Notes under the pieces: generated by a model
What the model was told of the DNA's origin: nothing
Database searches by the model: none
The model's input: only the letters and a program-made list of their open reading frames with translations
Part shown: positions 5,725 through 16,051 of the stretch, in pieces
Layout: each line of letters starts with the position of its first letter
Numbering within the stretch: the first letter of the stretch is position 1
From: Psammoneis japonica
Taxonomy: Eukaryota
DNA length: 64,000 bases
Reading direction: 5' to 3'
Assembly (NCBI GenBank): GCA_008632985.1
Contig: QPGO01000009.1
Span: 186,001 to 250,000, forward strand
Position numbers and translations under genes: made by a program

Positions 5725-8700
5725 ATGAGTGGCAGAGGAGGTGGCAGAATGAGCAGCCAAGGTCAAAGCTGTGGTCACAGCAGAGGTGACAAGAGCCACA
5801 TGTCCTCTGACCCAAAAAAGAAGACCAACACTGAGAAGCACATTCAATGCTGCACATGAAGACATCAAGGAGATGATCATTCATTGCATGCAAAAGCAGC
5901 ACGAACAAGGCATGCATGTGGCAAGGTCTTTAGAAGACACAAGGTGCAAGGACTTTGATTCCAAAAAACCTGCCTTAAAAGTTTCCATGGCAACAGTGCC
6001 TGACCCAGCACATGTGGGATGTCAGGCAGTGTTGCAGCAGAAGAGCTCAAAGACAAGGAGCTGGAACATGAGCACAAAGCAGAGCCAAGTGACAGCCACA
6101 AAAAAAGCAAAGCAGTTCAAAGAAAACAAGACAACTTGACTCAATGAGAGGTGTGCATCCACTCCGTGCACTCACCAAGGCCCTGAAGAACATTCCAGAT
6201 GTGAGGCAACAAGAGAGCAAGATGTGGAATGATTGCCTGTGAAGATTCAAGATCAGCAAGATGCTGCAATGAGCAAAGGCTGGGAGACAGGAGACAGAAT
6301 GCCAGATGGATTTGCACCCAATGCAAAGGAGTGCAAGGACAGTGATGTGACAGTCCAAACCAAGCTGCAAGATGCAGCACTGGAGACATGGATGTTGCAC
6401 CTGTTCTTGGAGATGTGCAGTGATTGCTGCTGCAAGATTTTAAAGGAGAGCTCCACAAGAGACTGCAGTCTGGGTAAAGACACCCATCTGAAGACTCTGG
6501 ATGTGGCAGTGGATGCACCGCTGACCCACCAAAAAGACCATGATCCTTGCAATCAACACAAGAGGAAGAACAACAAATGAAAAGACCACAAGAGCTGCAA
6601 TGGCAATGGCAACAATGTGACAACAGTCAGTCCAATGACACAAAGGACTGGATCCATGCCCAGAAGAGCAGCCAGAATGATGCTGCAGTGTGTGCTGGAG
6701 CTTCTCAGCTTTCTGACTGGCACACTTTTGGTCTCGCCATCATCTGACTCACCATGTGGTGGCTTGCAAACACACAACTGATGTCACTGACAAAGACAAA
6801 AGTGAGCATGAAGATGCAAACAAAAAGAAAATGAAGACAAACCCAGAAACATCATCACCCACTCAGAAGATGATGACTGTGAAGACAAAGTGGACTCGGG
6901 CAAAGAGTGCAAAGAAGCAAAAACAAGATCACAGCCAATGAAATGCCCAGACAAGAACCCAGAAGTTGAGGATGAGGACTGTGATGGCTGCAACAATGCC
7001 AAAGAGTTTCCAGAAGATGATGACGAAATGCAAGATGACACAAAATGGGAAAGAGAAAGACTGGAGGAAGAGGCAAGAGCCACATCTGCTGCTGCAACAG
7101 CTGGGGTTGGCAGATCCTTCAACAACTCACATTTAGAAACAAAAAAAACATTCCACGAAAAAAAGCTTGATTTGTGGGAGTGACAGATGCCACAAAAAAG
7201 AAGCGCGAGAAAAAAAACTCAAGTGCTTTCACCATTTGTGAATGAGCATGAGCCCCAACCCAGAGGATGACATTGAGCATGATGTGGAAACAGCAATGGT
7301 GCTGGCACAAGCGATGTGCAAGATTGGCGACTGACTCCAATCAGGAAAGGGTGTTTTCTTTGCCCAGCAACAGTTTTTGCTGTGTGGCAAAGGCCTGAAA
7401 GCATTTGGCCAGAAGGGGCATGATTGCTTGAATGTTCCCAATGGAGAAGCAAGATGGCTGCACAAAGGGCAAATGGTTTGCAACAAAAAACTGACAGGAG
7501 AATGGCTGGACAAGGATGAGTTGGCCTGCCCAACGGTGCCATTGGAAGGAATGCCAATGACAGCCATTGTCGACTCTGTGGAAGAGCATGATGCGACGAG
7601 CGCTGATGCACCAAATGTGTTCATCCAGACATTGACTCCAAAACCCAAGGAGGGTGAAGACCAGATCATGATGAAGATTGCAGGAGTGCTGGTTGACATG
7701 CAGGTGAGCATTGATCCCAACTCACATGGGCCATTTGTGCTGGCCACAGAGAGGGGCGGGAAGAGAATCCCTCACATCCAAGTCATTTGAGCCATGCACG
7801 GCACACTGGTTGCAGCTCTGCCATGGCACAAACAGCTTTGCAAGGACTTGGAGAAAATCAAGTTCAAATTTTACCCACACGATCCATGCATTGCCAATCA
7901 ACCAGTCAATTGCAAGCAGTGCACCACACATTTCCAGGTGGAAAACCTGTTGTCAAGCCATTCAAACCCAAAAGCAAGTGACAAATTCCTGAGCTGGCTC
8001 AACAAGATGTGTGAAAGCCATGGCAAAGTCATTGCAACACAAGGAAATGAGCATGACAGCCTTGGAATGCCCCCCTGGACTTCAGACACAAGGGCGCTCA
8101 CAAGATGATCAATCAGTTCCCAGAAGAGATCAAGAGCATGGATGCTTCCATGGCACCAGTTTGAGAGAACCTGTTTGATGCCAGTGGCATGAGATTGCCA
8201 ACAAATGAAGCAAAGTTTTTTCGTGCATGGGTGGCCAAGGGACTGTTTGCACACAAGAGAAGCCACATGGATGCACACCTCACTGCCACAGCATTGTGCA
8301 CACATGAGTTAGAGAGCCTGCCAAAAAGGGCTGGGGAAAGCCAGTCTGTTGCACCAAGCACTTCAACTGGACACAAAATGAAGTCACCACACTGAGCACA
8401 AAAGACCTCGGAGTGATCAAGTGACATGCAAATGCGTCGTTCGCAGCACACCTTGATTTTAAGAGCCACACAGGATGAGTTGTGACCAAAAGTGACGGAG
8501 CAGTGTAGACCACCACATTGAAGTGCAAAAAGCTCAACACCCGGAGCAGCACAGAGGCTGAACTCACAGAAGACAACAACTCAACAACCATGATTCTCTG
8601 TGGGGATGAAGTTGTTCATGGAGCACTGGGGGGCATCCAATTGAGACAAGAATGTCCTGCACCAGGACAAACAAGAGCACCACACTGTTGGAAATGAGTG

Positions 8701-9790
8701 GGTGCAGGAGTGCCAGAAAGTGATCCAGAGCACCATCTGGCGGGGCAACAATCTGAGATGTGTGCCAGCATGACAAAATTTCCGTTGCTGCAGAAAGTCA
8801 GATTTGTCTTACGTTGTCAATTGCTTGATGTGAGTGCCGCATGCCGGCATGCAGACAACTGATGTTGTGCGTTTAACCAAGCTACAATCTTGCACGCTCA
8901 CATGCAAGTTGATTTGTGCAACACAATCTTGTCACCTGCCACATGTTGTTTTTACCACATGGTTTGTCCCACTCATTTTCACCCCACTTGTTTTTACAAC
9001 ACAAACAATGGTGCCCCCCTTTGCTGTTGGAAATGATTGTCCCGTGTGTGGCAAACGTTTTCTCCCAACTGGTCTTCAACACCACCTGAGAACTTGTCTT
9101 CCCTGCAAACTGTTCTTTTCTCAAAGCCTTCATGCCATGTCATCCCATCAATCCAACACTGCTCATGGCAAACAGCCCCAAATGGGAGAATTGGATGAAC
9201 AAGTGGCGCGGCAGTGACGTTCACACTGGCACGCAGCAGAAAATGACGATGGCAGAGGTGTCAACCAGGAACTCAACTCAGTTCGGCAGCTGCAACATCA
9301 TGGAATGTGAACCGGGCATTGACCAGGAAAGAATTTTTTCACACGGTGAAAAGCACCCAAGTGTCACACTGTAAAATGTCAGGAACGTTGTCCGTGTGCT
9401 TGTCAGATTTAAAGCACAGTTTGAAAGCAATGTGAGTTGGGAACTGGTCCGAAGGTAAATTGTCGCACGGTGCAAAGTGGGCAAGTGTTGCACTTGAAAA
9501 TGTTGGGAACATCATCCGCGTGGTTGTTGCACTTAAATTTTCTTGTGACACACGACAAAAAAATTGCATCAGAAGCAAGATTTCTGACACAGCGGGTAAA
9601 AAATTTTGAATTGAATTTAAAAAATTTTCAGACATGATGAGCAAGAATGTTGCGCGCACATTCGCGCACAATGTCAGATTGTTGCCCCACCAGACAACTT
9701 GACATTTGGCATTTCTTTGTCACCAATCAGATCAAGAAGGACAGCTCAAGAGCAAAGTGCTGTCCAACTGATGACACGCTTAGATGCAGT
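5725..9790 (+). mobile_element. Degenerate Ty1/copia retrotransposon (diatom CoDi-like): gag, RT and RNase H remnants
   Basis: Gag-like MSGRGGGR...HLFLE...CSLGKDTHLKTL; RT motifs ADAPNVFIQT, AMHGTLVAALPWH, PHDPCIAN; RNase H HANASFAAHLDFKSHTG, KLNTRSSTEAEL, QDKQ, and LDIWHFFVTNQ...CCPTDD after the nested insertion. Many stops and frameshifts. Confidence 0.88.
8734..9696. mobile_element. TIR-bounded DNA element (about 963 bp) nested in the Copia RNase H
   Basis: Left end CATCTGGCGGGGCAACAATCTGA versus reverse complement of the right end TGTCTGGTGGGGCAACAATCTGA. The Copia peptide SRA|LDI is split exactly around it. Internal CPVCGKRF...HLRTC zinc-finger-like peptide. Confidence 0.75.
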
Positions 9791-15000: not shown

Positions 15001-16051
15001 CCGAATTAAAATGCAGCGAGAGCAAGGCGAACATCGTCGCGATAGACGCGATCAGCCGACTCACTGCAGAAAATTGAATCCTACGACAATGTCCTGCCGT
15101 TAAAACGGGACACAGACATTCCCTCCAAATTGTTGGACGCGACACATCATACGAACACTTTTCGTGGAGGCGAGCGAGATCGAAAAATGCTCATGTCACA
15201 AGGACAAAATCGCCTTTTTAAAGGACGATTTAGGAAAAAACAGCGACAGATTGGTGCACATTATGCGCGTCCACTTCACACTGGCAAAAGACAATCTCAC
15301 AACACCCGCGCGGTTGCATTGCACAATGTGCGAGGCAAGACATTAAAATGGACATCATGTCGACACACGAGATGTGCCAAAGATCTAGACAAAGAAAAGA
15401 AAAATGGACATTCACCCCACTCAGTGCACGAAAGCAGTGCCTTCGGAATGACAAAACAACACCGGCATGTCAGAAAGAAACGTCCAAATGACGATTAAAA
15501 TCCAACTGATGGATGGTTGAAGCACAAAAAAAAAAAAATCCACAATGGAATTCACAACCATCACAGGATTGATTGTCAAGACGAAATGGTCACAATGTCT
15601 TTGACCATCGTTTATTATTACTTATGAAACGTGGTGGTGCAGCAGAGCAACATGGCACATAAAGTAAGCCCGCCAAACTACATGAAATCCACAAGTAAGT
15701 AAGTGAACGCCACGATTAAGAGCGTACATTAAGTACTGGGCACGATGCTATGTACAATCGACATCAGGAGAAATACTTGCTCCAGGACAATTAGTCCTTG
15801 TGTTCATATCAACAAGAACGTCAATGAGAATACTCGACGTAATACCACATATATACATGTTAAGTGAGAAACAAACAATGTCACTCTCAAAAGACATTCG
15901 GAAATTGGAACGGCCCTATATTGCCTATACAAAACAACAACAGTCATTGCTAATGGCACAATACAGTGAAAGTGGAGACATTATTGACACTGTCGATGTC
16001 CGTCGAATAATCCACTTACAAATGACTCTAATGTGCAATTAGGGAGGCGAA

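Follow-up and report, generated by a model that had tools for sequence, protein, structure and literature searches.

Regional TpA conversion with CpG decay in transposable-element islands of a diatom-type genome, and the missing tyrosines of a Copia relic

Why should retrotransposon proteins lose their conserved tyrosines? This question is raised by a 64-kb stretch of Psammoneis japonica DNA (64,000 nucleotides of contig QPGO01000009.1; this whole stretch is called the window below, and all positions refer to it), which carries the remains of a Copia retrotransposon and a Ty3/gypsy-type element. The original prediction held that conserved tyrosines (Tyr) of both had been systematically replaced by His or Cys, and that TAY>CAY and TAY>TGY (Y, pyrimidine) are the two products of transitions at an ancestral TpA. 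Here, we report a regional, post-integration, TpA-specific A:T>G:C conversion with CpG decay. The loss of Tyr is a side effect of this wider removal of TpA, which also affects long terminal repeats (LTRs) and non-coding DNA. It seems probable that intergenic islands derived from transposable elements (TEs) in a photosynthetic, diatom-type eukaryote underwent dinucleotide-specific DNA hypermutation after integration, that is, TpA-specific A:T>G:C hypermutation of silenced repeat DNA alongside CpG decay.

The Copia element retains direct flanking LTRs, and its parts are as follows.

5399..5637, plus strand: Copia 5' LTR, 72% identical to 10850-11099 in self-comparison.
7233..8729, plus strand: Copia reverse transcriptase and RNase H relic, in three frames with TGA stops (tblastn, 116 relatives).
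8730..9688, no strand assigned: TA-poor interruption of the Copia pol region, about 1 kb; pol homology breaks at about 8729 and restarts at 9689.
9689..9775, plus strand: Copia pol C-terminal motif, reading IWHFF....KCCPT here and ..IRYFF....EYCPT.. in relatives.
10850..11099, plus strand: Copia 3' LTR, pair of 5399-5637.

Relatives were collected by a full HMMER search with the frame 7335-8108 as query (E<=1e-3). This yielded 2050 relatives, the best with E=6e-55 and 49% identity, and one of them is a polyprotein of the diatom Nitzschia. A Pfam search of the Copia read-through frames gave no match, the RVT_2 model missing them too. Upstream of the reverse transcriptase no relative aligned within 5638-7232, where integrase was looked for; judging from the sequence, this region appears to be lost or beyond recognition, and the element is best regarded as a relic. 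The interruption at 8730-9688 is probably a nested fragment. Contigs of other copies skip it (junctions 8702/9705 and 8733/9702), its depth of about 2400 is above that of the rest of the relic, and a second reverse transcriptase-like scrap lies at 9325-9375.

None of the conserved tyrosines has survived in the Copia relic. We defined conserved columns by tblastn of 116 Tyr-normal relatives on the window, with at least 8 relatives and at least 60% consensus, which gave 189 columns in 7233-8720, 119 of them kept and 70 changed. Conserved Tyr was kept at 0 of 10 positions (7 His, 1 Cys, 1 Gln, 1 Ser), while the other conserved residues were kept at 119 of 179, Phe at 9 of 10 and Trp at 2 of 3. 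Tyr loss is thus significant both against the rest (Fisher test, p=3.2e-5) and against Phe and Trp taken together (p=6.7e-5), the comparison by which the original prediction had proposed to be judged. At 8 of the 10 lost tyrosines the codon is now CAT/CAC or TGT, as expected of the two TpA-transition products. The Copia motifs singled out earlier (AMHG, PWH, PHDPC, HANASFAAH) do sit in the alignments of the relatives, and in the C-terminal motif two more tyrosines read His (IWHFF) and Cys (KCCPT) at positions where, in 9 long relatives, Tyr stands in 8 and 7 of the 9, respectively.

Other residues follow the same rule. Arg was kept at only 2 of 9 conserved positions (2 Gln, 2 His, 1 stop, 1 Cys, 1 Gly; p=0.007), and replacements such as Val>Ala (GCA), Leu>Pro (CCA) and Ile>Ala (GCA after T) are also found. 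Counted per codon, a single reversal of CA/TG explains 26 of the 70 changed residues, 14 by a return to TA and 12 by a return to CG; control dinucleotide classes explain 4-10 of the 70.

The effect is not confined to coding DNA, nor to one element. The original prediction had placed it at 5725-15080, and it is indeed present there, but dinucleotide profiles reveal five islands with sharp edges, spread across the window and amounting to 17.9 kb of its 64 kb.

2339..11678, no strand assigned: island A, TA- and CG-purged, with 0-5 TA per 250 bp (pooled dinucleotide statistics).
16419..16882, no strand assigned: part of island A beyond the gypsy insertion, with a TA-free run at 16412-16882.
20036..22225, no strand assigned: island B (dinucleotide profile, TA-free runs).
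24710..27399, no strand assigned: island C (dinucleotide profile, TA-free runs).
37227..39266, no strand assigned: island D (dinucleotide profile), with a 1777-bp TA-free run within it.
51794..52958, no strand assigned: island E (dinucleotide profile, TA-free runs).

The pooled islands (17,889 bp) hold 48 TA, an observed/expected ratio (o/e) of 0.05, and 334 CG (o/e 0.28), with CA and TG raised to o/e 1.64 and 1.69. The background (41,371 bp) holds 1658 TA (o/e 0.61) and 2378 CG (o/e 0.97), with CA at 1.13 and TG at 1.14. Normal DNA has 10-22 TA per 250 bp, against the 0-5 of island A, and the mean TA spacing of the whole window is 34 bp; the longest TA-free runs reach 1777, 1574 and 1164 bp, those in island A up to 1574 bp. 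Island A contains a pyrimidine-rich repeat block and the Copia relic with its flanks. The block (2380-4570) has 5-10% A and is internally repetitive; its tandem units measure about 27-31 bp or about 340 bp, and between copies most differences are transitions. A self-comparison with purines and pyrimidines collapsed revealed no links among islands B-E.

What was the ancestral state? Intact relatives do not already carry His or Cys at the positions in question. Of 110 relatives covering at least 150 query residues, 88 are Tyr-normal and 22 Tyr-poor, and the 88 retain Tyr where the 22 Tyr-poor public copies show a mixture of His and Cys. At 8 conserved Tyr columns the Tyr-poor copies have 67 His and 57 Cys intermixed, both transition outcomes occurring within one element as had been supposed. 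The choice between His and Cys varies from copy to copy, which argues for independent events. Tyr>Arg, for which TA>CG is needed, occurs 3 times in these columns; double hits are rare, and once converted a site ceases to be a target. Seven of the Tyr-poor relatives were looked up, and each belongs to a singleton or near-singleton cluster of Logan or ENA assembly origin.

Direction and rate can be read from related metagenome loci, gathered by a 7-row alignment scan of contigs in which the best 80 of 194 were kept, a choice that favours intact copies; 2 of these best 80 are clearly TA-poor. Six metagenome loci form one family with 88-93% nucleotide identity and TA o/e of 0.17-0.60. With their four sister copies as the reference for the ancestral state, we polarised the changes in two loci of the metagenomic Copia family, L057 and L059. 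TpA sites had undergone T>C (A>G when read on the other strand) in 20 of 88 cases in L059 and 17 of 52 in L057, other contexts giving 0.010-0.032 per base; C>T at CpG was found at 12 of 68 and 8 of 37 sites, respectively, other contexts giving 0.009-0.024 per base. Expressed per base, the range over the two loci is 0.23-0.33 for TpA and 0.18-0.22 for CpG, and just 0.011-0.019 for C>T at CpA. TpA is thus a mutation hot spot as strong as CpG in these loci. In a third metagenome Copia relative, L075, CpG o/e is 0.04 over the whole 1514 bp and TpA o/e is 0.86, so some lineages or copies lose CpG without the TpA process. TpA loss and CpG loss are separable, and in the young gypsy element described below TpA loss is ahead. 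The 88 Tyr-normal relatives, the polarised counts and ten gypsy sites listed below, with none in reverse, support TA as the ancestral state, as the original prediction had it.

The timing of the change was assessed in LTR pairs and in a tandem duplication. The gypsy element and its recognisable segments are the following.

11679..16418, plus strand: Ty3/gypsy-type element with LTR pair and target duplication, inserted in island A.
11679-12045 and 16052-16418, plus strand: gypsy LTRs of 367 bp, matching at 364 of 367 positions, starting with TG and ending with CA.
13257..13712, plus strand: gypsy protease segment (profile alignment, E=3.9e-11).
14136..14411, plus strand: gypsy reverse transcriptase segment with CPLP and ECCGLPM (profile E=1.8e-12; tblastn with P0151).
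14859..15077, plus strand: gypsy RNase H segment with VCADHK (profile E=2.3e-12).

The two LTRs of a retrotransposon are identical when it integrates, and for this reason the differences between them arose after integration. All three differences of the gypsy pair are TA versus CA/TG. The Copia pair has 61 differences, 47 of them transitions, and its identity rises from 72% to 91% once purines and pyrimidines are collapsed. In this pair 10 dinucleotides are discordant as CA versus TG (controls: 2 AC/GT, 1 AT/GC, 3 CC/TT), the outcome expected if an ancestral TA (or CG) had been converted independently in each LTR.

A second, LTR-independent case spans the left edge of island B.

19601..20377, plus strand: tandem duplication, with copies at 19601-19999 and 19993-20377.

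Here, the inner copy alone is mutated, with 11 TA/CG>CA/TG changes and 2 in the opposite direction. The first 44 bp of this copy, which lie outside island B, are untouched, and the TA/CG-purged tract extends 2 kb past the mutated copy. Since one tandem copy is mutated and the high-copy gypsy LTRs keep their TA, the process follows region and not homology. By these comparisons, the change was made in DNA after integration.

The gypsy element shows a weaker, partial form of the Tyr effect. It is flanked by a 4-bp target duplication, GCCC (11675-11678 and 16419-16422), and its polyprotein keeps to one frame throughout, without a frameshift, but is broken by many in-frame stops. A word-based search with this frame gave a single weak match, from whose family 60 intact relatives were taken to build a profile; the profile aligns three segments only, which confirm the order protease, reverse transcriptase, RNase H in one frame, and no integrase segment could be aligned with it. 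The Pfam RT_RNaseH model reaches E=9e-4 on the element, below its curated cut-off. Profile tyrosines were kept at 0 of 9 positions, replaced by 4 Cys, 2 Asn, 1 Trp, 1 Ala and 1 Thr and by no His. The predicted changes YPLP>CPLP and EY..LPM>EC..LPM were borne out, but at VCADHK the profile has Phe, and it thus gives no support to a loss of Tyr there.

In composition the gypsy element has TA o/e 0.43 and CG o/e 1.02. Its interior (13000-15250) is TA-poor with normal CpG, and its LTRs, although lying within the island, hold 10-22 TA per 250 bp. The family is abundant: word depth in run X1 is 9,000-33,000, versus about 70 for unique DNA, which amounts to hundreds of copy-equivalents. Differences within the family, counted by kind of place, comprise 1023 transitions and 238 transversions. 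Among the differences listed (40 of 1280 rows), 10 of 29 have CA/TG in the window and TA in nearly all other copies, the reverse occurring 0 times, and CpG differences among those listed are balanced, 5 and 5.

What kind of process could leave such a pattern? The data show that TpA is turned into CpA or TpG, one or the other base pair of this palindromic step undergoing an A:T>G:C transition, and that the tracts concerned also lose CpG by decay to TpG/CpA, which leaves DNA nearly without TA and CG and rich in CA/TG. At the protein level this changes Tyr (TAY) into His or Cys, and Arg (CGN) into Gln, His, Cys or a stop; TAA and TAG stops become impossible, leading to long false open reading frames (ORFs). 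We propose that the target would be a chromatin domain of silenced, probably CpG-methylated repeat DNA, and not homology as in repeat-induced point mutation (RIP). The TpA step would be enzymatic, most likely a deamination of adenine with 5' T, the neighbour preferred by TadA/ADAT-type deaminases, read as G at replication; CpG loss would be deamination of 5-methylcytosine on the same strand, and the events would be single, independent and not processive. More tentatively, and with rather less confidence than we have in the hypermutation itself, diatom-type algae may own an enzyme linked to genome defence or heterochromatin that edits DNA at TpA, be it a DNA adenine deaminase or a T-to-C converter.

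The distribution of events over the two strands bears on this chemistry. No run structure of His versus Cys was found in the Tyr-poor copies (51 concordant versus 51 discordant neighbours), and no strand-coherent runs were found in L057 and L059, so that nothing points to a processive single-strand deaminase. The totals are skewed in some copies: T>C (14) and G>A (16) exceed A>G (6) and C>T (5) on the coding strand of the Copia relic, and the corresponding bias is 15 versus 4 in the tandem copy and 30 versus 14 in L057. Read post hoc, A>G and C>T share a strand in these skewed copies, which is weak evidence for deamination of A and (methyl)C together on that strand and against a thymine lesion.

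Several observations weigh against the hypermutation reading as we state it. The His and Cys outcomes are intermixed, with no runs, and the strand coupling, post hoc in itself, is absent in L059 (13:13 at TA). One TA/CG reversal accounts for no more than the 26 of 70 Copia changes given above, and ordinary decay of the relic is therefore also large. Run X1 may be the window's own assembly sample, in which case it gives no independent support. Finally, the interior of the gypsy element is far TA-poorer than its LTRs. A purely regional post-insertion process does not predict this contrast, so either the source copy was already part-mutated or an RNA-stage input is needed. The gypsy copy may have come from a part-mutated source mobilised in trans, with selection keeping the LTRs functional; likewise, an RNA stage may have contributed to the TA loss of the interior.

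Among the other explanations, a lesion of thymine survives best, although we regard it as unlikely. Here the thymine of TpA would carry a modification, be it oxidation to 5-hydroxymethyl- or 5-formyl-uracil through a TET/JBP-type enzyme or some other change, and T>C would follow from its mispairing with G. As TA>CA/TG is symmetric, sequence alone cannot tell which base was hit, and the thymine of TpA would occupy the same place relative to the dyad as the methylated C of CpG. Thymine modification has precedents in base J of kinetoplastid telomere repeats and in hydroxymethyluracil of dinoflagellates, both with a TpA context. That context is not stated in the part of PMC6313786 consulted, and no report of hydroxymethyluracil in diatom DNA was found in the titles and abstracts of the papers listed, which are mostly about dinoflagellates. 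In the three strand-biased data sets T>C on the top strand goes with G>A and not with C>T, so a T lesion and C deamination would have to lie on opposite strands; this point is itself weak and post hoc.

RNA-stage editing is improbable as well. It supposes that double-stranded retroelement transcripts were A-to-I edited at UA on both strands, then reverse-transcribed and integrated. The gypsy element lends it some appeal, as TA-rich, near-identical LTRs around an interior poor in TA and full of in-frame stops, yet free of frameshifts, look like damage done before integration, the family differences are mostly transitions (the 1023 versus 238 above), and A>G with a 5' U resembles the work of RNA adenosine deaminases. 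The independent outcomes in the LTRs (10 CA-versus-TG discordances in Copia, 3 of 3 differences of TA type in gypsy) argue against it, as do the tandem duplication with one copy mutated and the other not, islands that extend past the element ends and take in non-retroelement repeats, and the absence of strand-coherent runs. RNA hyperediting followed by retrotransposition is accordingly at odds with the LTR comparison, as it predicts states common to both LTRs and the pairs differ at TA-derived sites. RNA editing could add to the DNA-level process but cannot be the main cause.

Still less probable, to our mind, is that no dedicated process exists and that old methylated repeats decayed slowly by CpG deamination on top of a general rarity of TpA. 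CpG loss in methylated TEs is standard, TA o/e in the background is already 0.61, and the Copia relic is old, with LTRs 72% identical and many other substitutions. In the young gypsy element, however, TpA loss is ahead of CpG loss and is the sole kind of LTR difference; the per-base TpA rate is 10-20 times that of other contexts and equals that of CpG; an island TA o/e of 0.05 with sharp edges goes far past the genome's own bias; the window's normal intergenic DNA can run high in TA, its o/e reaching 1.5 at 41-43 kb; and L075 has lost CpG but not TpA.

An artefact (a modified base misread) or a native composition (elements selected without TA and CG) is very improbable even if run X1, a single DNA sample from one study, is the sample of the assembly: X1 contigs at about 70x, the depth of unique DNA, match the relic with 0-2 differences across pieces of 356-1654 bp, CA outcomes lie interspersed with TG outcomes along a single strand, a pattern that strand-specific misreading of a modified base would not produce, the same signature occurs in ENA, Logan and JGI assemblies from other sources, and the broken coding frames and the polarity given by the 88 Tyr-normal relatives speak against native composition.

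Regional TpA hypermutation with CpG decay, as proposed above, has partial counterparts among known systems. It resembles RIP of Neurospora and other fungi in being a dinucleotide-specific transition hypermutation of TE DNA that leaves skewed islands and dead ORFs. RIP changes C to T at CpA and makes TpA. The direction here is the opposite, TpA being destroyed and CpA/TpG made; RIP strikes both copies and only the duplicated tract, while here one tandem copy is mutated and the tract runs 2 kb beyond it; and the high-copy gypsy LTRs keep TA, which means that homology is not the trigger. RIP was therefore rejected as a candidate, given TpA o/e of 0.05, CpA/TpG o/e of 1.64-1.69, C>T at CpA of 0.011-0.019 per base and tandem copies that do not follow its homology rule. 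The CpG decay of methylated TEs is matched by an excess of CG>TG/CA in the same tracts and by the change of Arg into Gln, His, Cys or stop, but it leaves the TpA loss unexplained, the gypsy element losing TpA with normal CpG and L075 doing the reverse; CpG decay is thus present but insufficient.

A-to-I editing by ADAR or Tad2/Tad3 (ADAT) shares the net A>G change and the 5' neighbour T (U), but those enzymes act on RNA, while the substrate here is integrated DNA without strand-coherent clusters. In E. coli a bias of very-short-patch repair depletes CTAG, and the likeness is that there, too, repair or modification converts a word with TA in it into CA/TG derivatives over evolution; that system is bacterial, genome-wide, word-specific and mild, whereas the loss described here is regional, near complete and affects every TpA. 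As to possible agents, the consulted part of PMC3239186 describes ADAR as restricted to metazoa, trypanosome Tad2/Tad3 as also deaminating C in single-stranded DNA, and stramenopile-specific deaminase-SAM-Tudor proteins; according to a consulted portion of PMC9998398, diatoms have DNMT4 enzymes related to the RIP factor RID, with a function that is not known.

TpA-directed hypermutation was nowhere described, for diatoms or for any other group, in the full-text literature searched, subscription journals and supplements lying outside the search. None is described in the portions consulted of PMC9998398, PMC3239186 and PMC6313786, a term look-up in PMC2806351 found no mention of TpA, RIP or dinucleotide in the text covered, and a term look-up in bioRxiv 10.1101/2025.10.24.684338 found no mention either, within the text it reached. 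To our knowledge, the known systems of TE hypermutation (RIP, APOBEC, CpG decay) all deaminate cytosine and push DNA towards A:T. As the present signature pushes A:T to G:C at one dinucleotide in integrated DNA, an undescribed activity is likely, with a substantial chance of a categorically new chemistry underlying it.

If diatom-type algae do own such an enzyme, it would mirror RIP in its chemistry and found a class of its own among natural A:T>G:C DNA editors, one that erases Tyr codons, TAA/TAG stops and TATA-like signals of silenced transposons. Should an enzyme be responsible, nature would have an A>G (or T>C) editor of DNA that prefers TpA, and a testable function would be offered for the orphan stramenopile deaminases or for the RID-like diatom DNMT4. 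The TA- and CG-free signature would also be an easy genome-wide marker of old silenced DNA in these algae.

There are consequences for annotation as well, since TAA and TAG cannot occur in the islands and long false ORFs are generated there. Of the 35 ORFs of at least 200 aa in the window, 14 fall in islands, and long stop-free ORFs are found in several frames and on both strands (e.g., 2637-3995, 3704-4633, 9780-10862, 37454-38338 and 38169-39110). Pfam searches of 13 of these 14 (all but 2375-2983) gave no family in any; this includes the ORFs of islands B-E and, in island A, 10815-11711, 16382-16999 and the minus-strand 9780-10862. Tyr-free 'proteins' of such origin are already in public databases, and because Pfam misses such relics, TE content is underestimated.

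The TA that do survive in the islands have a context of their own. Of the 48, 43 stand in a TAA/TTA context, versus 594 of the 1658 in the background; TTAA is 8.6-fold enriched among survivors, and RTAY words (R, purine; ATAT, GTAC, ATAC/GTAT), which make up 496 of the 1658 background TA, have 0 survivors. As a lead, these counts suggest that the process may have a wider (tetranucleotide) sequence preference. New TA arising by other mutations could contribute to these contexts.

The islands lie in a gene-dense, eukaryotic setting, in which PXA/PX sorting nexins, EST1 and EIPR1 are encoded together with a SpoU methylase. About 370 bp past the end of island C (27399) lies a light-harvesting gene of chlorophyll a/b type (27764-28417). 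Together with the Nitzschia polyprotein among the relatives of the Copia relic, these genes suggest a diatom-type alga as host. The PX/PXA sorting-nexin-like ORFs form two separate sets, at 17274-19580 and 44970-51235. In composition the intergenic DNA at 41000-43000 runs counter to the islands: TA is in excess there (o/e 1.05-1.51), CTAG, GTAC and TAGTAG words abound, and the stretch may be a promoter or other signal region.

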